This document shows positions 27,904-40,032 of a stretch of DNA of 64,000 bases, piece by piece. Both the position numbers and the translations under genes were made by a program. How positions within the stretch are numbered: the stretch's first letter is position 1; every line of letters starts with the position of its first letter. The notes under the pieces are model-generated. The model searched no databases. It saw only the letters and a list, made by a program, of their open reading frames with translations, and was not told the DNA's origin. The DNA is from Actinomycetota bacterium (GTDB taxonomy: Bacteria > Actinomycetota > Actinomycetes > Actinomycetales > Kineosporiaceae), in the NCBI GenBank assembly GCA_030837345.1, contig JAUPKQ010000051.1, positions 717 to 64,716 on the forward strand, in the 5' to 3' direction.

Positions 27904-28109
27904 CTCTTGACTCGGGGGCCGAAAATGGAAGGATGGTGACATGAAGGATCCGTTAGGTGGCGGAGAGTCACATTGGGGTGAGGCGGCGTCAAGAGTCGGA
28001 CAGCATTGCGTTAAGCGCCTGGATTGAACCGGTATCCGCCTCTACCCTGTGGGGCGTCGATCACCCCGGGGGATGGAAACATCCACCGTTCCGTAGCCGG
28101 GGGAAAGGA

Positions 28110-28991
28110 ATGAACGTGAACGACGGGTCATCGCAGGGGCTTCGGGGATCTTGTCGCTGGGTGGTCACGGGCCTGGTCGCCACGGCATTGGCCGGGGGAG
28201 GGTCGCTGATGGTGGCGACCACGTCGCAGGCGGTGCCGTCGACCTCAACTCTCTTGCTCAACGGAAAGTGCCTGGACAGCAACAAGCACGGTCAAGCGTA
28301 CATCGTCGGCTGTAACGCCGGAAAATACCAGAAGTGGAAGTTCGAGAACCTCGGTGGTCGCGGCACCATTGTGAACGAGGCGACCGGACGCTGCTTGGAC
28401 AGCAATCACGCGGGCGCTATCTATACCTTGAAATGCAATGGCGGATCCTTCCAGGATTGGAACGCCCCGAAGCCGGGCTCTTCTTTCCTTGTGAAGATCA
28501 ATAATGTGGCCACCGGACGGAACCTGGGTCTCTCGTCCAAGGCGAAATTGTTGGCCAGCCCTGGGTCCAAATATTCCTGGTCGCTCGGGGACCTCGTCAT
28601 CAACACCGGTACCCATCGCATCGTCGGCGTGGCCAACAAGTGCCTCGGGGCCGCTCGCGGTTCGACGACCGTCGGAACCGCGGCGGACCTGTACGGCTGC
28701 AACGGGGCGGCCACCCAGAAGTGGATCTTCGGCGGCGACCAGACGGTGAGGGCAGGCGGCAAGTGCCTTGAGGTGAAGGCGTCGACCGCCACCGGTGACG
28801 ATCTGCCGGTACGGCTCAACACCTGCACGGGCTCGGCCGATCAGAAGTGGACCTACAAGTCGAGCTCCGACCTGGTCAACCCGACGCGGGACAAGTGCCT
28901 GGGTCTGCAGGGGAACTCCTCGGACGACTACACGGTCACGCAGCTGTCGACCTGCAACGGGTCGTCCGGTCAGAAGTGGAAACTCACCTGA
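28110..28991 (+). CDS. Secreted protein made of two ricin-type beta-trefoil lectin domains.
   Basis: ATG at 28110 follows GGGGGAAAGGA and a signal peptide is present. (QxW)-type repeats: 'GKCLDSN...YQKWKF', 'RCLDSN...FQDW', 'NKCLGAA...ATQKWIF', 'GKCLEVK...ADQKWTY', 'DKCLGLQ...SGQKWKL'. No catalytic domain is attached. Confidence 0.85.
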   Translation: MNVNDGSSQGLRGSCRWVVTGLVATALAGGGSLMVATTSQAVPSTSTLLLNGKCLDSNKHGQAYIVGCNAGKYQKWKFENLGGRGTIVNEATGRCLDSNHAGAIYTLKCNGGSFQDWNAPKPGSSFLVKINNVATGRNLGLSSKAKLLASPGSKYSWSLGDLVINTGTHRIVGVANKCLGAARGSTTVGTAADLYGCNGAATQKWIFGGDQTVRAGGKCLEVKASTATGDDLPVRLNTCTGSADQKWTYKSSSDLVNPTRDKCLGLQGNSSDDYTVTQLSTCNGSSGQKWKLT

Positions 28992-29097
28992 CCCACAGCT
29001 GATCGCCACGATGTGCTCGCGCCCGGTCGTCGTCGATCACCCACCGGAAGTGCCTCGCTGACGTCGATCTCGGGTGGCTTACCCACTGCCCGGGTCC

Positions 29098-29161
29098 GGT
29101 GGGATCAGTGTGCGCGGCTGGTGTCGCGATCGCGACACCAGAGGCACACGCTGATCCCACC
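29098..29161. repeat. 64-bp near-perfect palindrome at the left edge of the low-GC island.
   Basis: ggtgggatcagtgtgcgcggctggtgtcgcga|tcgcgacaccagaggcacacgctgatcccacc. 28 of 32 positions pair. The central 20 bp, GGTGTCGCGATCGCGACACC (29120-29139), is perfect. Confidence 0.85.
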
Positions 29162-29665
29162 CCCGATCCACGCGGCGCATCCTCTACCCGATCCGCGACC
29201 ATTCAGCGCCGGGACCTGCCGCACGGACAGAGGCGGTTGCCTGACCGGTCTTTCAGCCGGATTCGGCGTCCTGCTGGTCGATCGCAACGGAATGGTCGCG
29301 GCCATCGGTACTACTGATGTTGAAATACTGTAGGACATACATGCGGCCGATTTCACAATCCGTGCGTATTGCGGCAGATAACTGTTCATGGAAAAGTGAT
29401 CGATCGAAGATCATTACAAGTGGTGTCATGGATCATCGCCGCGATTCCCCCGCTTCGTTCGGGGTGTAAACCGATACCGACATCGGATCCTGTCTCGCCG
29501 CAATCAGTCGTTTCGGCTTCGGGGATTTGTGTGCTGTACCGGGGTGATTGGCCTGGTAGGCGGTAGGTGTTTCTGGGCCAACTGTGCCTCGTCATTCGCG
29601 GTTGATTCGTTGCGGGTGTTCATGTTCACGAGAATCGTGAATCACACGGTGGATCGGAGGAAATT

Positions 29666-30316
29666 GTGTCAAGAACAAGGGTACTTCTGGTAACTCTCGC
29701 GTTGACTCTGTCGCTTTCACTCACCGGGGCGGAGGCTCGGGCTGCAGGGGCGAATGTTCAAGACCAGTCGCGAGTGGCTCGGATGCGTGTCGTTTCCTAC
29801 GGGCATGGCGGAACCGATGGTCATTCGTTTCTTTTGATCAACAACATCGACACTCTTCCACATTCACTGGTTGGAATGACGGTTGCAGTCGGAGGAGAGG
29901 TCTCCGTAGGAACCTGGGGGAACAAGCCGGACGGCAAAGGTGTGTACTTCAACCTTGAGCGTCACTTCGGCCCTGGCGCATACCCTGGACGCGTCTCATT
30001 GGAGATGAACTTGACGTCGGAGCAGCTTTCTACTGTATCGAAGCGCATAGTGGACAACAATTCGTGGGCCTTGGCGAACAACTGTTCTTCATTTGCGACA
30101 AAGGTCTGGAACTCGGTGGCCACCGTGAAGGTGAAAGCGGGGACCCCGAATACTCCCGCAAAGCTGACCGGTAACATCAAGACCCATGCCGGATGGGTTA
30201 CGAACACCGGGTTCTCCGCGTTGAACGACGACAGCCAGGTGTTTGCGCTGGAAGGCAAAGGCTCACGCAAGAATGTGAGCTCTGGTACGCTGACGAGCGG
30301 TAGTACGAGTGCATAG
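29666..30316 (+). CDS. Secreted protein of unknown function; first gene of the low-GC operon.
   Basis: GTG follows GGAGG with signal peptide 'VLLVTLALTLSLSLTGAEARA'. It contains 'GHSFLLINN' and 'NNCSSFATKVW', loosely reminiscent of the His / NCxxF Cys motifs of NlpC/P60-LRAT-type enzymes. That link is speculative. Confidence 0.6.
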   Translation: MSRTRVLLVTLALTLSLSLTGAEARAAGANVQDQSRVARMRVVSYGHGGTDGHSFLLINNIDTLPHSLVGMTVAVGGEVSVGTWGNKPDGKGVYFNLERHFGPGAYPGRVSLEMNLTSEQLSTVSKRIVDNNSWALANNCSSFATKVWNSVATVKVKAGTPNTPAKLTGNIKTHAGWVTNTGFSALNDDSQVFALEGKGSRKNVSSGTLTSGSTSA

Positions 30317-30345
30317 CTGTATCATCACTACACTAGGTGGCTGGC

Positions 30346-30645
30346 ATGGCGTTCCACTGGTGGTCCATTCCTGGATTCGTTCTCCTGGTCGTTCTGGGAC
30401 TGTTCTTCACGATGCGGGCAGGTCGAGGACTGTCTCGATCGGCCCGTGCTGTGATCTTTGGGGTCGAGGCAATCCTCCTCGGAATCCTGAGCTTTTTTGC
30501 CTGGTGGACGAATCAAGGTAATGAGAACTACTACGGGAATCTGCTCTTTCTTTACTCCATTGGATTCCTGATAGTGATTGTTGCGGTGATGATTGTGATC
30601 GAGTTGGTCCTCGTAGCGAAGGCTCGGGCTCATGCGAATCGTTGA
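30346..30645 (+). CDS. Small three-helix membrane protein.
   Basis: ATG at 30346 follows AGGTGG; the track start is GTG at 30337. Hydrophobic helices: 'WWSIPGFVLLVVLGLFF', 'AVIFGVEAILLGILSFFAWW', 'LLFLYSIGFLIVIVAVMIVIELVLV'. Confidence 0.55.
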   Translation: MAFHWWSIPGFVLLVVLGLFFTMRAGRGLSRSARAVIFGVEAILLGILSFFAWWTNQGNENYYGNLLFLYSIGFLIVIVAVMIVIELVLVAKARAHANR

Positions 30646-30925
30646 GCCGCACGGTGTGCACTTCACCCGGATTAACATCGTCGATAATCAGGTTGATCTT
30701 GAGGCTTCGTTCAGCACATCTGGCACGCGGTGTCTCTGGGTCCGATCGAAGATTATCGACGGGGATCTCTTGCTGTGGGTGTGGGGTTCCTCCGTGTTTG
30801 GAGGACATAGTGTGCGGTTCTGCCGACGCCTAGACCTTGACACTGTGGGCGTGGACCGGATCGTCCTCTGCGGAAGCACCCCGACGTCGAGTCGCACGCT
30901 CTGGTTCCGGGGGGACCGGAGGTGA
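30632..30925 (+). CDS. Hypothetical 97-aa protein.
   Basis: Its start overlaps the preceding gene by 14 nt, and its TGA overlaps the GTG of the next gene (GTGA). No family recognised. Confidence 0.45.
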   Translation: MRIVEPHGVHFTRINIVDNQVDLEASFSTSGTRCLWVRSKIIDGDLLLWVWGSSVFGGHSVRFCRRLDLDTVGVDRIVLCGSTPTSSRTLWFRGDRR

Positions 30926-31761
30926 CTCACCGGATGATTGTGTCGTGGGCGGTCAAAGGTGCGTCCATCGTTCTGGTTCTTGTTCTGATGGCGCTCGTGC
31001 TTCTGTACGGTCTCCAACGCTCGTTGGTGTATTACCTCGACCGGACGCCTGCGGGCACGGTGGCTGATCGGATTCCCGGGGCCGAGGACGTCGTCCTCCA
31101 CGCGATGAGCGGCCTTGATCTTGAAGCATGGATGCTGAAGCCCTCGGGCACCGACCGACGTCAGGCAGTCCTGTACTGCCCGGGTAATGCCGGCAATCGA
31201 CTCGATCGACTCAAGGTCGGATTGGCCCTTGCGTCAAGGGGGTTCACGGTGCTCCTGCTCGACTATCCCGGCGCGGGCGGGAATCCCGGGTCACCAACAG
31301 AGGGGAGCTTGGTGGCTGGTGCTCGGGCAGGTGCGGCCTATCTTAAGAACCGCGGTTTCGACAGCAAGCGCCTGATCTACGTGGGTGAATCCGTCGGGAC
31401 TGGAGTCGCCGCCGAGCTCGCCGCACTGGACCCCCCAGCTGGCGTATTGCTGAGGTCGCCGTTCACATCCCTCGATGATGTGGTCACCGAATCGTATCCC
31501 TTCATACCGGCGAGAGTACTTTTGAGAGATCATTTCGATAGCTCAAGGTACCTGAGCGGCAGTGACGTTCCGGTTCGTATTCTGTGCGGAAGTGCCGATG
31601 ACATTGTTTCTCCACGCTTGTCGATCCAATTGTCTCGTCAGGTGGGTCATCTGCAGGGTCTCGTCGTGATTCCGGATGCCGGACACAATGATGAAATCTG
31701 GTTCGGATCCCGATTGGCTGACGAGGTAACCGTCCTGGCGGACAGCGTCGACGGCCCATAG
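30922..31761 (+). CDS. Membrane-anchored alpha/beta hydrolase.
   Basis: N-terminal TM segment 'ASIVLVLVLMALVLLYGL'. 'LYCPGNAGN', the nucleophile elbow 'YVGESVGTGVA', 'CGSADDIV' and 'IPDAGHND' supply the Ser-Asp-His triad context. Confidence 0.8.
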   Translation: MTHRMIVSWAVKGASIVLVLVLMALVLLYGLQRSLVYYLDRTPAGTVADRIPGAEDVVLHAMSGLDLEAWMLKPSGTDRRQAVLYCPGNAGNRLDRLKVGLALASRGFTVLLLDYPGAGGNPGSPTEGSLVAGARAGAAYLKNRGFDSKRLIYVGESVGTGVAAELAALDPPAGVLLRSPFTSLDDVVTESYPFIPARVLLRDHFDSSRYLSGSDVPVRILCGSADDIVSPRLSIQLSRQVGHLQGLVVIPDAGHNDEIWFGSRLADEVTVLADSVDGP

Positions 31762-31762
31762 C

Positions 31763-32191
31763 TCATCGATGACCGGTTGGCTTGGCGAGGGCCAGGGGCG
31801 ACTGAAACCGACCGCGAATTTGGGTACTGCTTTGGATGACAGAATCTTGGGGGCGTTCATCCTCTTCTCCGAAGCCGATCGTTCGGTATCGGTGGAGAGG
31901 AGTCGGACACAGCGTAAGTGATCCGGTGCGAGCCGGTGGGATCGGGCGACACTCGTGGACCACCTGGTTGGTGTCCGCGACGTGTTCGAGCGCGTCGCAA
32001 CGGGCCACGTCGTCGAACGTGCTGCCAGGGAGCCGCAGGCGCTCGCCGTTCCAGGTCAGACAGGTGATGTCCAGCCGGGAGCTCTCGGCGTGGGCCTTCG
32101 ACGCGTCCGACGTCGAGGCGGGGGTGCCGAACTCACCGATGTCGTCGTCCCACCAGGAGTTCGCCAGGGTGTCGTAGAACGCGTTGTCCAT
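31763..32191 (-). pseudogene. Decayed class I SAM-dependent methyltransferase-like gene (motif I region missing).
   Basis: The N-terminus 'MDNAFYDTLANSWWDDD' and the later 'GSTFDDVARCDALEHVADTNQVVHEC' resemble UbiG-type methyltransferases. The GxGxG SAM-binding segment between them is absent, and the C-terminus is unrelated. Confidence 0.35.
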
Positions 32192-33811: not shown

Positions 33812-34414
33812 TCAGGTCGAGGCCCGGCGTTGCGACCGTGTGCGCACCGCGGCCTGGTAGGCGGTCGCCGCGGAGGGATGGGCCCCGGGGGCGGGCCACC
33901 AGCGGGCGCGGGCGAGGGTGAAGGGGTACCACCTCCGGTCCGGGCCGAGCCGCAGACGGATCCCCGCCGTGACGTCGACGATCTCGCCGGCGCCGAGGGT
34001 GAGATCGTCGGACGCGAACGCCCGCCGTCCGCGGACCTCCTCCGCCGCCGCCTCGAGATCCTCGGCGTCGCACGGTGTGCCCGCGAGGGCCGCGGCGACG
34101 CCGTCGTCGCCACCGTGCCGGTGAGCGAGCACGAGTCGTCGCAGGTCGTCCTCCGGGATGCCGGTGAGCCTCTCCGCCGCGGCGACGTGTCGTGCCCCGG
34201 CCGGGGTGGCGAGCATCCGGACGGCGTCGACGAGGGGATCTCCGGCCGTGGCGGGACCGCCCGCGAGAAGGGCGGTGGCGCGTTCGGCGGCGTCCGAGAC
34301 GAGAAGGCCGAGCTGCTCGGGGCCGGGGACGCCGGACGGCGTGGGCCAGGTCGCCCAGGCGTTCGCGTCTGGGAGGTCAGAGCGAGCCGCCCGGTCCGTG
34401 TCGTCGGTGGCCAT
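33812..34414 (-). CDS. Uncharacterised 200-aa protein translationally coupled to the SNF2 ATPase.
   Basis: The ATG shares one nucleotide with the SNF2 TGA (TGATG). The sequence has an acidic N-terminus and a Trp-rich C-terminus ('RRWYPFTLARARWWPAPG'). No family recognised. Confidence 0.6.
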   Translation of the reverse strand: MATDDTDRAARSDLPDANAWATWPTPSGVPGPEQLGLLVSDAAERATALLAGGPATAGDPLVDAVRMLATPAGARHVAAAERLTGIPEDDLRRLVLAHRHGGDDGVAAALAGTPCDAEDLEAAAEEVRGRRAFASDDLTLGAGEIVDVTAGIRLRLGPDRRWYPFTLARARWWPAPGAHPSAATAYQAAVRTRSQRRAST

Positions 34415-37400
34415 CAGAACTCCTCCTCGCCGGGCTCGGCCCCCGGACCGGTTCCGAGGGACACGAGGTCGGACAACTCGTCGTCGGACAGTTCGGTCAA
34501 GGCCGTACCGCCCGTCCCGAGCACCGCCTCGGTCAGCTCCCGCTTGCGGGCGAGGAGGTCGGCGATGCGGTCCTCGACGGTGCCTTCGGCGATCAGGTGG
34601 TGGACCTCGACGAGACCCCGGCGTCCGAGCCGGTGGGCCCGGTCGGTCGCCTGGTCCTCGACGGCGGGGTTCCACGGCCGGTCGACGTGGATCACGTGGC
34701 CGGCGCGGGTGAGGTTGAGCCCGGTCCCGGCGGCGCGGACGGACAGGATCAAGGCGTCGCCGTCCCCGGACTGGAACCGGTCGACCATCTGCTGCCGCGC
34801 CGCCAGCGGCACCCCGCCGTGGAGGAACTCCGCGCGGATGCCCCGGGCCGCGAGATGCGCGCGGACGAGGTGCCCCATGGTGACGTATCCGGTGAAGATC
34901 AGGGCCGCGTCGTCGGAGAGGACGACGGCCTCCATCAGGTCGTCGAGGGCGCCGAGCTTGCCGGACCGGGCAGCCTGCCGGTCGGCGTCCCAGTCCTCCG
35001 GGGACTCCCGCAGATAGTGGGCCGGGGAGTTGCAGATCTGGCGCAGGGACTGCACCAGGCGCAGCACCTGACCGCGCCGGTCAGGACCGCCGCTTGTCGC
35101 GATCCGCCGCAGGGCCTGGTCGGTGGCGGCGCGGTAGAGGGACGCCTGCTCGCGGGAGAGACCGACATACCGGTTGTCGACCACCTTGTCGGGCAGCTCG
35201 GGGGCGACACCGGGGTCGCTCTTGCGCCGCCGCAGGACGAACGGGGCGATGAGCCGGGCGAGCCGCCCGGTGGCGACCGGTGCGGGCCCGGCTGCCTCCT
35301 GATCGGTTGTCTCCTGCTCGCAGGCACGTGCGTACCGGTCGCGGAACGCCGTCAGAGAGCCGAACAGCCCCGGATTGGTCCAGTCGAGGATCGCCCACAG
35401 CTCCGACAACGAGTTCTCGACCGGGGTTCCCGTCACCGCGACCCGCGCCGCCGGACGCAACAGCCGCAACGCGCGGGCGGCCCGGGACCGGTGGTTCTTC
35501 ACCTGCTGTGCCTCGTCCGCCACGACGAGGTCCCAGGGGACGCCGGCGAGCCGCTCGGCGTCCCGCAGCAGCGTCCCGTAGGTGGTGACGACGACCTCCC
35601 CGTCGGCCAGGCCGTCGAGGGACCGGCCCGCCGCGTGGTAGCGGCGGACGACGACGCCCGGCGCGAACCGGGCGATCTCGCGTTCCCAGTTCGCGACCAG
35701 GGAGGCGGGGCAGACGACGAGCGTCGGCCCGGCGTCCCGGCGGAGCAGCCGGTAGGCGATGACGGTGACGGTCTTGCCGAGCCCCATGTCGTCGGCGAGC
35801 AGCGCGCCGAACCCCGCCGCCGTCACCCGGTCCAGCCAGTGGACGGCGACCTGCTGGTAGCCGCGCAGGGTCGCGGTCAGCCCCTCGGGCGGAGCGGCGT
35901 CGCCGCGCGGGCCGGATCCCGCGTCGCGCAGCGCGGTGACCAGGTCGGCCAGGCTCCCGGCCCCGGAGCAACTGAGGGTCCGTCCCCCGACGGTCACCTG
36001 GCCGGTGAGCGCCGCGCCGAGGGCCTGCGACCCGGTGAGGCGTCCGGCGTGACGGTCACCGGCGATCCTTCGGGTCTCGGCGTCGAGGACGACCCAGCGC
36101 CCGCGCAGACGCAGGACACCGTCGACGGCGTCGGCCGCGGCCTGTACCTCCTCGTCCGTCAGCGGCTCGTCGTCGAGGCTGAGCTGCCAGGCGAGGTCCG
36201 CGACGCCGGTGGGGGAGAACCCGCCCGATCCGCCGGAGGACCCCAAGGAGACGACGACGCCCGCGGTCAACGTCGGCGCTCCCAGCAGATCGGCGTGCCA
36301 CTCGGCCGTCACACCGAGCTCCGCGAGTCGTTCCCCGGCCGGGCCCAGCAGCTGGGAAGCGTCGGCTCCGCCGAGCGTCCCGTCGCGCCGGACCTGCTCC
36401 AGGGGCGGCCAGGCGCGGCAGGCCCGGCGCAGCAGGCGTTGCTCCGCACGGTTCGGAACCGCTCCCGTCGGGAAGAGCAGAGACGCGTGGAGCGGCAGGC
36501 CGACGTCGTCCGGCGGGCACAGGCGGATCACCAGCCGGGCCGGGGAGGCGCCCTCCGGCGTCCCGGCGGCCTCGGCGGCCTCGGCGGCGCTGTCCGCCCA
36601 TTCGGTCACCTCGGCGGTGAGGGGGCGGGGAGCGCCCGCGTACGGCAGATCCCCGATCACGAGCGAGGCCCCGGGCGGGCGCAGCACCGTGTCCGCCACG
36701 GCGTCGAGAATCCCCTCCACTGCCGGATCCGGAGGGCCGGAGGGCGCGACGCGCCAGCGGTCCCGGCCGTCGGCGTCCACGGCCGGGTGGACGCGCCGCG
36801 CGGCGATCGCCTCCAGTGCGGTCCGGGTGGCGAAGGCCCACCGTCGTGCCGAGGGGTGGACCGGGCCGTCGACGGCGAGCGGGTCGAGGGCGAGCAGCAG
36901 GGGCAGCGCTGTCCGGAGTCCGAGCTCGCACCCGGTCAGGGACTCAGGCAGCGGGCCCTCGATCCGCAGTCCCCGGTCGGTGACGCCGAGGGGGCATCCC
37001 GCGCGCATCAGCCGGGCGAAGATCCCCTCGGGGGTCCGGGACTGTTCGCGCCGGGCGCGGGCGAGACGGTCCAGATGAGCGAGTTCCGCGGCGAGTACCT
37101 GGTCGAGCAGGACGGCGGCCGCGGCGGCCTTCGCGTCGTTCTTGCTCGTGGCCTCGCCGGTCCCCGTGCAGGTGCCCGCGGCGTGGACGCACCGGGCGGC
37201 ACACGTGAAGACGGGCCGGTGCGCCGGTCCCGTCGCCTCGTGCGTGAAGGTCAGGTCGGTGATGACGCCGATCTGCGCGCGTTCGTTGAGGAGAGCGACC
37301 GGATGGCCGTCGGGAGCGGGCCCCCCGGACACGCCGTCACCGGTCACGGACGGCGCGAGGTCCCTGACGAGGGCCAGGGCGGCGGAGGCGCGGGCGGCCC

Positions 37401-38412
37401 GGGTCCCGGCGGCGACGGCGGGTTCCCCGACGACCGGTCCGTCCGGTGTCGTGACGACCGCGACCGCCGTGCCCTCGGCCGGCTCGACGTAGCAGGCCGG
37501 GGACCACGACCGGGCCTGGGTCCGCATCGACAGGACCCCCGGCGCCTGGGCCGGGGCGGTGACGAGGGCGTCCCACGCCGCGGCGCGCTGGGCCCGCCAG
37601 CCGTGCGGCGGGGCCTCGAAGAGCAGCAGGTAGAGGGAACGTGCCGTCAGGCGTCCGGCGCGGTGGCGGGCGGCCAGATGGACGGCGAGCTCGGGGTCGG
37701 GCTCCGGCCGGCTGACCAGGTGGTCGAGCCAGGCCTCGACCTCGGCGGGGGTGGCCGAGGGCGCGTCGGCAGCCGGCTCCGTCGTCGGCCGGGTGAGCTC
37801 CGGGGCGTCGATCCCGGTCAGCCGGGTGAGCAGGGCGACCACGGCCTTCTGGGTCGCTCGCTTCTTGGTGCTGTCGTGGCAGGGCCCGCCGCGGACCGTC
37901 GTGCCGTCCCGGTCGAGTGACGCCTGCGCGGTGAACCCTCCCTCGACGGCGGACTCGCTCACCTTCAGGGGCGTCCCTCCGCTCCTCTGGGTCTCCAGGT
38001 GCACGATCTCGACGGCGAGGTGCGGTCGCCGGGCGACGGCGTCCATCGCGGAGTGCCTCGCGGCATGCCACACGGTGTCCCGTGCGACGAAGAGCACCTG
38101 GTGCAGCTCCCGCGCCGCCGCCCCGGTCCCGACGCGGGCTCTGGTCTCGGCGATCAGCGCCGTGTTCGTCGCGCCGTCGCCGCAGGCGCACTTGAGGACG
38201 GCGAAGAACTCCTCGGCGTCCAGGCTCGCGAAGTCCGTCGACGGATCGGCGATCAGAGCACGCACCGAGCGCTGGGCGCGTGCCTTCTCGGGGTCTCTCC
38301 CCGGGCCGGGGCGACTGCTCCGTGACAGGCGCGGCGGCGACGGCGGCCCCGGCGTCCGCCGGACGCGAGCCAGATCGGCGGGCGACGGCGGCTGGGGGGA
38401 AGGCGCTGACAC
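34414..38412 (-). CDS. SNF2-family DEAD/DEAH-box ATPase (1332 aa) with an N-terminal extension of about 440 aa containing dsRBD-like modules.
   Basis: SNF2-associated region: '[17 protein letters not shown]...[11 protein letters not shown]'. Motif I: '[12 protein letters not shown]...[10 protein letters not shown]'. DEAQ box: '[11 protein letters not shown]'. Helicase C: '[43 protein letters not shown]'. The N-terminal '[15 protein letters not shown]...[24 protein letters not shown]' is dsRBD-like. Confidence 0.9.
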   Translation of the reverse strand: [1332 protein letters not shown]

Positions 38413-38521: not shown

Positions 38522-39148
38522 GTGACCACGGGAGAGATCACGGGAGTGACCGTCAGGGAGGCGGGCGAGGGGGACTGGCCGGCCGTCGCGGAGATCGTCA
38601 ATCACTACATCGCCGTCTCGACGGTGAACTTCCGCACCGCACCCCAGACGGCGGGTGAGTGGGAGAACCACTGGGCGCGCCACCACGAGAGTCATCCCTG
38701 GCTGGTCGCGGTCGGCGAACGGGCGACCGGGGACGCCGGGGAAGCGGCCGGTGGACCGCCCGACGGGTGCGCCGGCGGAATACAGGTGCTCGGCATCGCC
38801 TACGCCGGACCGTGGAGCGAACGTAACGCCTACGACTGGTGCACCGAGGTGTCCGTCTACGTCCGGCACGGGGCCCAGGGACGCCGGGTCGGTCAGGCGT
38901 TGTACCGGCGGCTTCTCGCCGCCGTGGACGCGCAGGGATTCCGTACCCAGATCGCGGTGATCGGGCTTCCGAACGACGCGAGCGTCGGGTTCCACGAGTC
39001 GTTCGGCTTCCGCCGCGCCGGAACCCTGGCCGCCGTCGGCTTCAAGCACGACACCTGGTGCGACGTCGGCTACTGGCAGCGCACCCCGGTCCCGTCACCT
39101 GAGGCTCCCGGTCCGCTGCTGCCGTGCTCCGCCGTCCTCGGTGACTGA
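38522..39148 (+). CDS. GNAT-family acetyltransferase of the phosphinothricin-acetyltransferase (PAT/Bar-like) type.
   Basis: GTG at 38522 follows GGGAGAGAGG. 'VREAGEGDWPAVAEIVNHYIAVSTVNFRTAPQTAGEW', 'VYVRHGAQGRRVGQALYRRLL' and 'HESFGFRRAGTLAAVGFKHDTWCDVGYWQ' are present. Confidence 0.85.
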   Translation: MTTGEITGVTVREAGEGDWPAVAEIVNHYIAVSTVNFRTAPQTAGEWENHWARHHESHPWLVAVGERATGDAGEAAGGPPDGCAGGIQVLGIAYAGPWSERNAYDWCTEVSVYVRHGAQGRRVGQALYRRLLAAVDAQGFRTQIAVIGLPNDASVGFHESFGFRRAGTLAAVGFKHDTWCDVGYWQRTPVPSPEAPGPLLPCSAVLGD

Positions 39149-40032
39149 CGGAGACTCTCCTTCAGCGTTGTGATCATGTCCAGGGTGTCCTCGACGCTGA
39201 GGGCCCGGTTCCGCAGGTCGTCCCAGGTACGGGCGTAGACGGCGACCTCGGCCGGTTTGGTGAGGTACATGGCGCCGGTGAGGGAGTCCACGTAGGCCAG
39301 CGGCGGCTCCAGCGGCTCGCCGCCGAGCGGGTTCGGCGGGAAGCGCAGAAGGGAGAAGGGGGTCCCTCCGTGGATCCCCGCGCTCCACGGCAGGACCTGC
39401 ACGACGACGTTCGCCCGCAGGGTGACGTCCAGCAGGTGCTGGAGCTGATCGCCCGCCAGGTCACCGGCGGCGGTCACACGGTGCAGGGACGCCTCGGAGA
39501 CCACGACCTCCAGGCGGGGCGCCCGCGGACGGGTGAGCAGTGACTGTCGCTCCATCCGGACCTCGATGCGGCGCCGGATCTCGGACTCCTCCAGGAGGCC
39601 GGCGGGGATCCGTGCGATCGCCTCGGCGTAGGCGGGTGTCTGGAGCAGCCCGGGAAGCAGCTCCGACTCGTACTGGCAGATGGTCTCCGCGGCGTCCTCC
39701 AGGGAGACGTACAGCCCGAACCAGCTCGGGAGCTCCGTCTCGGTGTAGTCGTGCCACCAGGACTTGCGCCGGCCGTTACGCGTCTCGGCGGCCAGGGCGA
39801 GCAGGATGTCGCGATCCGTGTCGTCGGCCCGGTAGAGGTCGAGCATCTGCCGGACGTCGACCTCCCGGAAGCGAACGCCCTCCCCACCTTCCTCGATGCG
39901 GCTGATCGTGGCCCTCGATCGTTCCAGTCGCCGGGCGGCCTCCTCCTGGGTCAGGCCAGCGCCCCGGCGCAGGGCGGTGAACCGCCGGCCGATGTGCCGG
40001 CGGACCAGGGCCGATCCCACGGCGTCCGTCAT
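39070..40032 (-). CDS. XRE-family HTH regulator with a DUF5753-type C-terminal domain.
   Basis: 'LRRGAGLTQEEAARRLERSRATISRIEEG', then 'WWHDY...LPSWFGLYVSLEDAAETICQYESELLPGLLQTPAYAEA' and 'VQVLPWSAGIHGG...FSLLRF'. No adjacent DUF397 partner was seen. Confidence 0.85.
   Translation of the reverse strand: MTDAVGSALVRRHIGRRFTALRRGAGLTQEEAARRLERSRATISRIEEGGEGVRFREVDVRQMLDLYRADDTDRDILLALAAETRNGRRKSWWHDYTETELPSWFGLYVSLEDAAETICQYESELLPGLLQTPAYAEAIARIPAGLLEESEIRRRIEVRMERQSLLTRPRAPRLEVVVSEASLHRVTAAGDLAGDQLQHLLDVTLRANVVVQVLPWSAGIHGGTPFSLLRFPPNPLGGEPLEPPLAYVDSLTGAMYLTKPAEVAVYARTWDDLRNRALSVEDTLDMITTLKESLRQSPRTAEHGSSGPGASGDGTGVRCQ

Follow-up and report, generated by a model that had tools for sequence, protein, structure and literature searches.

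What would a bacterium do with a SNF2-type motor that carries a string of double-stranded-RNA-binding domains (dsRBDs) ahead of its ATPase, and is such a string really there? The question is raised by two overlapping genes on the minus strand of a 64,000-nt stretch of a contig (JAUPKQ010000051.1) from a soil actinobacterium of the Kineosporiaceae, the whole of which is called here the window; all coordinates of the two genes refer to that strand. The first gene, at 34414..38412, has a GTG start and codes for a 1332-aa SNF2-family ATPase whose N-terminus is kept among homologues, while the second, at 33812..34414, codes for a 200-aa partner protein. A preliminary description, made from the letters alone, had credited the ATPase with three dsRBD-like modules in an N-terminal extension of ~440 aa, and the modules are indeed present: the extension is composed of two tandem units, each a helical domain followed by a degenerate dsRBD, and of one canonical dsRBD after them. 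We hold this domain anatomy, and the family assignment, with high confidence. Together, the two genes represent a rare, undescribed form of a known but functionally unstudied gene pair, in which a SNF2 motor is accompanied by a SWIM zinc-finger protein.

The canonical domain, dsRBD 3 (aa 368-442; 37087..37311), was the only module recognized by Pfam: dsrm (PF00035) matched aa 371-437 with an E-value of 9.8e-8 and 32.9 bits against a gathering score of 23. Its sequence contains the LNExxQ, GPAH and SKxxAK motifs and a conserved Cys pair (FTCxxxCxH). Modules 1 and 2, searched on their own (aa 46-207 and 221-361), yielded no Pfam match even at E<=10, which is why structure prediction and profile-profile comparison were applied to them. 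The AlphaFold2 model made for aa 46-470 from a 13-sequence alignment has a mean predicted local distance difference test score (pLDDT) of 82.5 and a predicted template modelling score (pTM) of 0.41. In this model, a helical bundle leads into an alpha-beta-beta-beta-alpha unit (aa 131-199) within aa 46-199, the same pattern recurs in aa 222-352 (unit at aa 287-352), and aa 371-458 fold into a plain alpha-beta-beta-beta-alpha unit that has a long second helix and only a flexible linker ahead of it. The helical spacer that had been described ahead of every copy is thus found before the first two modules and not before the third. The linkers between the blocks are modelled with pLDDT <50, and the low pTM indicates that the predicted blocks would be arranged as beads on a string. 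In Foldseek searches of the Protein Data Bank (PDB), the best match of the extension was TARBP2 in the Dicer complex (7zpk_C; E 3.7e-5 over 317 aligned columns), and the other top matches were likewise multi-dsRBD proteins, namely Loquacious-PB, R2D2, MLE dsRBD1-2, DRB4 and NF90, with the DHX9 dsRBD pair also among the matches.

Profile comparison led to the same subdivision. When hhalign was run on parts of an alignment of the extension that combined 24 sequences from genome loci and database representatives, it paired degenerate dsRBD 1 (aa 128-200; 37813..38031) with the Pfam-positive dsRBD 3 at 94% (E 1.4e-7), and degenerate dsRBD 2 (aa 286-355; 37348..37557) with dsRBD 3 at 95% (E 2e-8). 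Helical domain 1 (aa 58-127; 38032..38241), which has four to five helices, was paired with helical domain 2 (aa 222-285; 37558..37749), which carries an invariant YLLLFEA...GW motif, at 99.1% (E 1.6e-18), and unit 1 as a whole (aa 58-200) with unit 2 (aa 222-355) at 99.9% (E 3.9e-33). When a profile of modules 1 and 2 only was run against PDB sequences, the top 11 matches were all dsRBD proteins, among them Loquacious (8.8e-4), DRB2, TARBP2, DCL4, R2D2 and RDE-4; these matches are weak singly and consistent taken together. In addition, module 1 aligns to aa 357-524 of another cassette-bearing protein, P0163, a region that holds a Pfam-significant dsrm domain at 435-504.

Could the long reading frame itself be an artefact, in which two genes or a frame error were joined in high-GC sequence? 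A word-indexed protein search with the N-terminus might have given this impression, as all 18 matches were only 269-751 aa long and many ended in arginine-rich, out-of-frame tails; these short proteins are, however, fragments, largely from long-read metagenome-assembled genomes (MAGs) that are prone to indels, and many of the database homologues in the P0001-P0018 series are frameshifted fragments of this kind. A pattern scan of 185,579 species genomes revealed 9 loci of the close clade, including those from Dactylosporangium sp. NPDC048998, Sphaerimonospora cavernae, a Kineosporiaceae MAG and Microflora-Danica MAGs, and tblastn recovered the entire ~1320-aa protein in one frame at six of the nine. 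Further loci (L010, L011, L012 and L014) were reached via the partner gene. The fusion is read in one frame at L002, L004-L007 and L009-L011, and one long open reading frame (ORF) of 1545-1558 aa is present at both L012 and L014, which are more distant, so that the full frame of ~1225-1558 aa is intact in genomic DNA at ten independent loci. An exhaustive phmmer search of 1.84 billion representatives yielded 194 proteins at E<=1e-3, with full-length representatives of 1166-1545 aa; all 14 of the long matches scanned combine SNF2-rel_dom with DUF3670, and Pfam-significant dsrm is present in 36 of the 44 phmmer proteins scanned. The artefact explanation, to which we gave next to no credence, is refuted by these intact frames and full-length proteins, which also rule out the extension as a separate gene. 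The fusion and its partner are kept in Dactylosporangium, Sphaerimonospora, Rhizohabitans, several MAGs and a Streptomyces-like contig, the partner in the latter being 95% identical to a Streptomyces sp. protein.

A few of these sequences deviate from the common arrangement. In the clade of 1545-1558-aa proteins (L012:1541-6178 and L014:2328-7004) the extension is longer, ~600 aa, and window aa 336-439 match it twice, making a fourth dsRBD possible there, to judge by the alignment. In P0284 (674 aa), the frame continues from the SNF2 C-terminus into the partner. A JGI metagenome contig contains a decayed copy of the module (L013:2403-3842), in which a single 479-aa ORF comprises the start of helical domain 1 together with helical domain 2, dsRBD 2 and dsRBD 3, and runs without a break into the final ~65 aa of the partner, the SNF2 motor having been deleted in its entirety; a PIN toxin pair adjoins it. 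We considered this ORF (P0016/L013) as a “Rosetta-stone” fusion of dsRBDs to the partner, and rejected it as a doubly deleted remnant.

Behind the extension, the protein is an ordinary SNF2 motor, as had been described. The region from aa ~445 to 679 (36376..37080) is shared, by NCBIfam and BLASTP, with ordinary SCO1167-type helicases, and is followed by the SNF2-helicase-associated DUF3670 (PF12419; aa 680-801; 36010..36375), by SNF2-rel_dom, or ATPase lobe 1 (193 bits; aa 852-1131; 35020..35859), with intact GLGKT and DEAQ motifs, and by Helicase_C, or ATPase lobe 2 (68 bits; aa 1155-1263; 34624..34950). With both Pfam domains and motifs I and II in place, the 1332-aa protein qualifies as a SNF2 family ATPase. 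We place the boundary of the extension near aa 445 because BLASTP to the plain helicase of locus L016 begins at window aa 543, which corresponds to aa 132 of that helicase. Over aa 543-1330, the motor is 43-53% identical to plain actinobacterial SNF2 helicases. The best NCBIfam model is NF058637, “SCO1167/SCO6262 family helicase”, at 861.5 bits, its best stretch extending over profile positions 273-931; neither the window protein nor its L012 relative (902.8 bits) reaches the equivalog cut-off of 1200, so that SCO1167/SCO6262 is the closest family, yet the window protein lies outside the curated equivalog. The model for RapA, the RNA polymerase-associated SNF2 protein, matched only partially, at 38 bits against a cut-off of 576, and no Ribonuclease_3 match was found by Pfam in the 1332-aa protein at E<=1. 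The proline-rich leader in front of the extension (aa 1-45; 38278..38412), which was delimited from alignments and lies outside the structure model, contains a short motif, SPxDLAR[VLI]RxxP, that is present in all close homologues and could be a docking peptide for another protein.

Which nucleic acid the extension might serve is suggested by its occurrence elsewhere. In textbooks, the bacterial dsRBD is a domain that RNase III carries in one copy, and the preliminary description had taken bacterial dsRBDs to be essentially confined to that enzyme. This does not hold: an RNB (RNase II/R) domain was found in 30 of 30 mid-sized phmmer matches scanned (~590-760 aa), each with the same helical-plus-dsRBD cassette at the C-terminus. 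In this RNB-cassette family (P0163, P0168, P0188, P0193 and 26 further representatives) the RNB domain is N-terminal and most members have a Pfam-significant dsrm; window aa 55-440 align to aa 390-747 of P0188. The cassette is therefore common to a DNA motor and an RNA exonuclease, and since its hosts are either SNF2 proteins (14/14 of the long matches) or members of an RNA-degrading enzyme class (30/30), its job is expected to concern RNA.

It could be argued from the same sharing that the motor itself acts on RNA, as a remodeller of double-stranded RNA (dsRNA) or ribonucleoprotein and a functional analogue of DHX9 and MLE, whose dsRBD pairs appear among the Foldseek matches; such an enzyme would unwind or clear structured RNA, perhaps feeding the cassette-bearing RNB-type exonucleases. 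We consider this improbable, as the motor has a typical SNF2-rel_dom/DUF3670 composition and 43-53% identity to plain actinobacterial SNF2 helicases, and a SWIM-type partner is retained. Moreover, characterised SNF2 enzymes follow the minor groove of double-stranded DNA (dsDNA), not RNA.

Whether the array itself could bind an RNA duplex was judged from residue conservation, counted across 23 family members. Helix 1 of dsRBD 3 (LNERAQ) has E in 15/23 and Q in 20/23; the GPAH loop has G in 17/23, P in 15/23 and H in 13/23; and the start of helix 2 (SKNDAK) has K in 20/23 and K/R in 21/23. With all three contact regions present (E/Q in helix 1, the GPxH loop, and KKxAK where helix 2 begins), dsRBD 3 belongs to “type A”, for which competence in RNA binding is predicted. 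Module 1 keeps KKxA and lacks GPxH, and module 2 retains only an R/K-A-A-R remnant. It may be added that two Cys and a His in the beta-strands of dsRBD 3 are conserved (C 21/23, C 22/23, H 11/23) at positions occupied by hydrophobic residues in ordinary dsRBDs, and are also present in the RNB-linked copies; judging from this pattern, they may form a metal or disulfide site.

Alternatively, the array might bind no nucleic acid at all and, like “type B” dsRBDs such as TRBP dsRBD3 or Staufen dsRBD5, be a scaffold for protein-protein interaction or autoinhibition, which would dock the motor on RNA polymerase, the ribosome or the degradosome, or gate its ATPase. The lack of the GPxH loop in modules 1 and 2 and their invisibility to Pfam would fit such a role, as would the near-zero net charges of the modules, the conserved proline-rich motif and novel helical domains beside the dsRBDs, and a beads-on-a-string organization (pTM 0.41) typical of scaffolds. 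We nevertheless regard a scaffold as unlikely: module 3 keeps all three canonical RNA-contact motifs, strongly conserved in the close clade, module 1 keeps its KKxA motif, and the sole other host of the cassette is an exoribonuclease.

We then turn to the partner gene, the ATG of which shares one base with the TGA of the SNF2 gene (TGATG; 34412..34416), exactly as had been noted. The two-gene module is conserved: a gene for a partner homologue directly follows that of the dsRBD-SNF2 protein at all 11 loci reaching that position (L002-L007, L009, L010, L011, L012 and L014), and start and stop overlap, as RTGA (GTGA or ATGA) or TGATG, at every dsRBD-SNF2 locus checked, most of the related loci also having a GGAG-type Shine-Dalgarno-like sequence shortly upstream of the overlap. 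The overlap implies that motor and partner are translationally coupled. The window partner is 100% identical to “hypothetical protein QG622_814 [Actinomycetota bacterium]”; its close homologues number 122 and are about 150-220 aa long, for the most part 185-205 aa.

Although the 200-aa protein has no matches in Pfam, NCBIfam or PADLOC, and had been described as lacking a recognizable family, its relatives could be traced through the distant 1545-aa clade, in which the partner is 413 aa long. The core of the window partner (aa 53-172; 33899..34258), including an invariant RxGxDxRWxP strand motif, aligns to aa 264-383 in the C-terminal half of the longer protein with 36% identity (E 3e-16), while the N-terminal half of the latter contains a SWIM-like CxCx4CxH motif, FTCACRQAPCQHTAALGHAL. 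The partner-family profile also reaches ~410-aa proteins of Streptomyces, Streptosporangium, Nonomuraea, Streptacidiphilus and Rhizohabitans, as well as P0299 (3e-14) and P0301 (5.6e-5), which are annotated at the source as “SWIM zinc finger family protein” or “SWF or SNF family helicase” and whose genes directly follow those of ordinary 987-1007-aa DUF3670-SNF2 helicases. In their N-terminal halves, the 410-aa partners show homology to the corresponding halves of P0299 and P0301 (E 1e-13 to 3e-6). Pfam does not detect SWIM on the 410-aa partners, and P0299 scores only 14.6 bits, under the gathering score; the SWIM link is therefore based on the CxCxnCxH motif, the source annotations and the homology of the N-terminal halves. 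A family of SWI2/SNF2 ATPases that are associated with the SWIM domain has been recognized by the Aravind group (PMC5512222). The window pair resembles it in having an adjacent, co-oriented and homologous partner, and differs in that the partner has a single Cys and no SWIM motif (CxCxnCxH); no homologue of the SWIM half was found within the 64-kb window or at the close-clade loci.

By these alignments, the window partner is the C-terminal domain of a ~410-445-aa SWIM zinc-finger partner, the zinc-finger half of which was lost. The cassette was likely gained first, and the SWIM half lost later in the clade of 1225-1354-aa proteins that includes the window, because the 1545-aa clade still has the full partner. 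The trade of a SWIM half for dsRBDs suggests what the normal job of the SWIM half may be. The AlphaFold model of the partner (pLDDT 90.7, pTM 0.78) predicts helices, a five-stranded sheet with the invariant RxGxDxRWxP, and a C-terminal helix; Foldseek searches with this model against PDB and BFVD gave no match with E<0.09, and a profile search against PDB sequences gave noise only (e.g. ESAT-6, E 0.0065).

Taken as a whole, the pair is a variant of the SWIM-associated SNF2 module, and the best of the readings, already suggested in the preliminary description, is that its motor is a DNA translocase directed by RNA duplexes or RNA:DNA hybrids; we give this about even chances. SsoRad54-type SNF2 motors are reportedly dsDNA translocases (Durr et al. 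2005). The dsRBD array would recognize an A-form duplex, which might be dsRNA produced by convergent or antisense transcription, a folded nascent transcript or the RNA:DNA hybrid within an R-loop, and its binding would tether the SNF2 dsDNA translocase at such sites. ATP-driven translocation would then strip or remodel a DNA-bound obstacle, such as the hybrid, an RNA polymerase that has stalled or some other protein. The partner would, through its C-terminal domain, act as a stoichiometric subunit or adaptor of the motor, and the array would take over the nucleic-acid targeting for which ordinary members may use the SWIM half. For the RNA-directed mechanism in itself, which we propose from sequence features, the odds seem to us slightly below even. 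Several points weigh against it. The GPxH loop is missing from two of the three dsRBDs, those in modules 1 and 2, which may not bind RNA; dsRBD 3 has a net charge of -2 in the window protein, while typical dsRBDs are basic, and its GPxH is gone in the distant 1545-aa clade. RNA:DNA hybrids are bound by dsRBDs more weakly than dsRNA, and the physical interaction of partner and motor is inferred from gene order only. More speculative, and in our view rather doubtful, is the broader scenario in which a mobile actinobacterial “helical domain + dsRBD” cassette builds TRBP-like arrays on both SNF2 translocases and RNB exoribonucleases, the SNF2 version being an RNA-guided remodeller of DNA that senses dsRNA or R-loops, with duplex recognition having replaced the SWIM zinc finger of the ancestral partner.

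The preliminary description had placed the pair beside an accessory island and regarded this as compatible with defence. As an anti-phage or anti-plasmid surveillance system, the dsRBDs would detect dsRNA of phages or intermediates of replication, with the SNF2 motor as effector, by analogy with ZorD, DrmD, DpdE and BrxH. We think this has little chance of being correct. The PADLOC models for ZorD and DpdE do match the motor region (E 1e-108 to 1e-57), but PADLOC and NCBIfam models match only the generic ATPase core, and the curated NCBIfam scores are far under the cut-offs (233 vs 1500 for ZorD, 93 vs 950 and 80 vs 610 for DrmD, and 50 vs 500 for DpdE). Neither a nuclease nor another effector domain is present, PADLOC gives no match for the partner, and the partner genes of Zor, Drm, Dpd or Brx systems are absent; by scores and neighbouring genes alike, the pair does not belong to Zorya (ZorD), DISARM (DrmD), Dpd (DpdE) or BREX (BrxH). 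The patchy distribution of the close clade (9 species genomes in the scan) and the PIN toxin-antitoxin pairs that adjoin L011 and L013 would be in line with a defence role, yet the parental SNF2-SWIM pair was found in ordinary chromosomal contexts at the two Streptomyces loci examined.

The neighbourhood argues in the same direction. In the window, the module is surrounded by two GNAT acetyltransferases, an XRE-DUF5753 regulator, hydrolases and a pyridoxal-phosphate decarboxylase, and the flanks are different at every related locus, with glycerol metabolism, an asparaginase, a Mur ligase and a lanthipeptide cluster among them. A lower-GC stretch lies 2-6 kb from the module, which could be taken in favour of defence, but the GC content of the module itself (0.75-0.77) is at or above the window mean. 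With flanks that are metabolic or regulatory and vary between loci, the defence-island reading was rejected. The lower-GC stretch (28000-32000; 0.58-0.60 vs ~0.70), probably the “island” of the preliminary description, is a feature separate from the module. It contains short ORFs as well as genes for a family-less protein with a signal peptide (29666-30316) and for an alpha/beta hydrolase (30922-31761), and a GNAT gene and a gene for a small Cys-rich secreted protein are located between it and the module. Upstream of the module there are a divergent GNAT gene (~38590-39148, plus strand) and, beyond it, a gene for an XRE-type regulator with HTH_31 and DUF5753 (39070-40032, minus strand), neither of which is kept beside the module at other loci.

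We found no literature describing dsRBD-SNF2 fusions, DUF3670, the function of SCO6262-type helicases or RNB-dsRBD proteins, and the dsRBD-SNF2 architecture has so far been picked up solely as automatic Pfam matches. A eukaryote-style array of three dsRBDs is thus carried in a bacterium by a chromatin-remodeller-type motor, and the same cassette by RNase II/R-type nucleases. If dsRNA or RNA:DNA hybrids are ligands of the array, the pair would be a simple two-protein system for studying a SNF2 translocase directed by RNA structure, with possible roles in surveillance of R-loops or antisense transcripts in high-GC actinomycetes, and would offer a first functional handle on the widespread, unstudied SNF2-SWIM gene pair. 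An RNA-guided remodeller, should the array prove to be part of one, would point to a pathway, so far unrecognized in bacteria, that links double-stranded RNA or hybrids to the remodelling of DNA.

Comparison with known systems shows that the closest arrangement is the plain SNF2-SWIM pair of the SCO1167/SCO6262 type, which has the same DUF3670, SNF2-rel_dom and Helicase_C motor with a partner gene immediately downstream; the window motor differs by the addition of the ~445-aa dsRBD cassette, and its partner by the absence of the SWIM half. The 1545-aa clade (P0158/L012 from the Streptomyces-like contig, and L014 from Rhizohabitans arisaemae) shares the cassette, the motor and the overlapping downstream partner. 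Its cassette, however, is only ~28-35% identical, the extension is longer, dsRBD 3 is without GPxH, and the 413-aa partner keeps the N-terminal half with the SWIM-like CxCx4CxH. The RNB-cassette proteins (P0163, P0188, P0193) have the same helical-plus-dsRBD cassette, which in them is C-terminal on an RNase II/R-type catalytic domain; they lack the SNF2 motor and show no evidence of a partner gene. With bacterial RNase III, the window protein shares the Pfam dsrm domain, and the dsRBD region of the L012 protein has a weak NCBIfam RNaseIII match, although the window protein has no RNase III catalytic domain and contains three dsRBDs instead of one. Finally, TARBP2, Loquacious and R2D2, the best structural matches, resemble the extension in combining type-A and degenerate dsRBDs on flexible linkers, and DHX9 and MLE resemble the whole protein in having a dsRBD array ahead of a superfamily 2 motor. 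Common descent of the whole architecture with these eukaryotic proteins is not detectable: the window motor is of the DNA-tracking SNF2 type rather than DExH, and two of its three dsRBDs carry a novel N-terminal helical domain.

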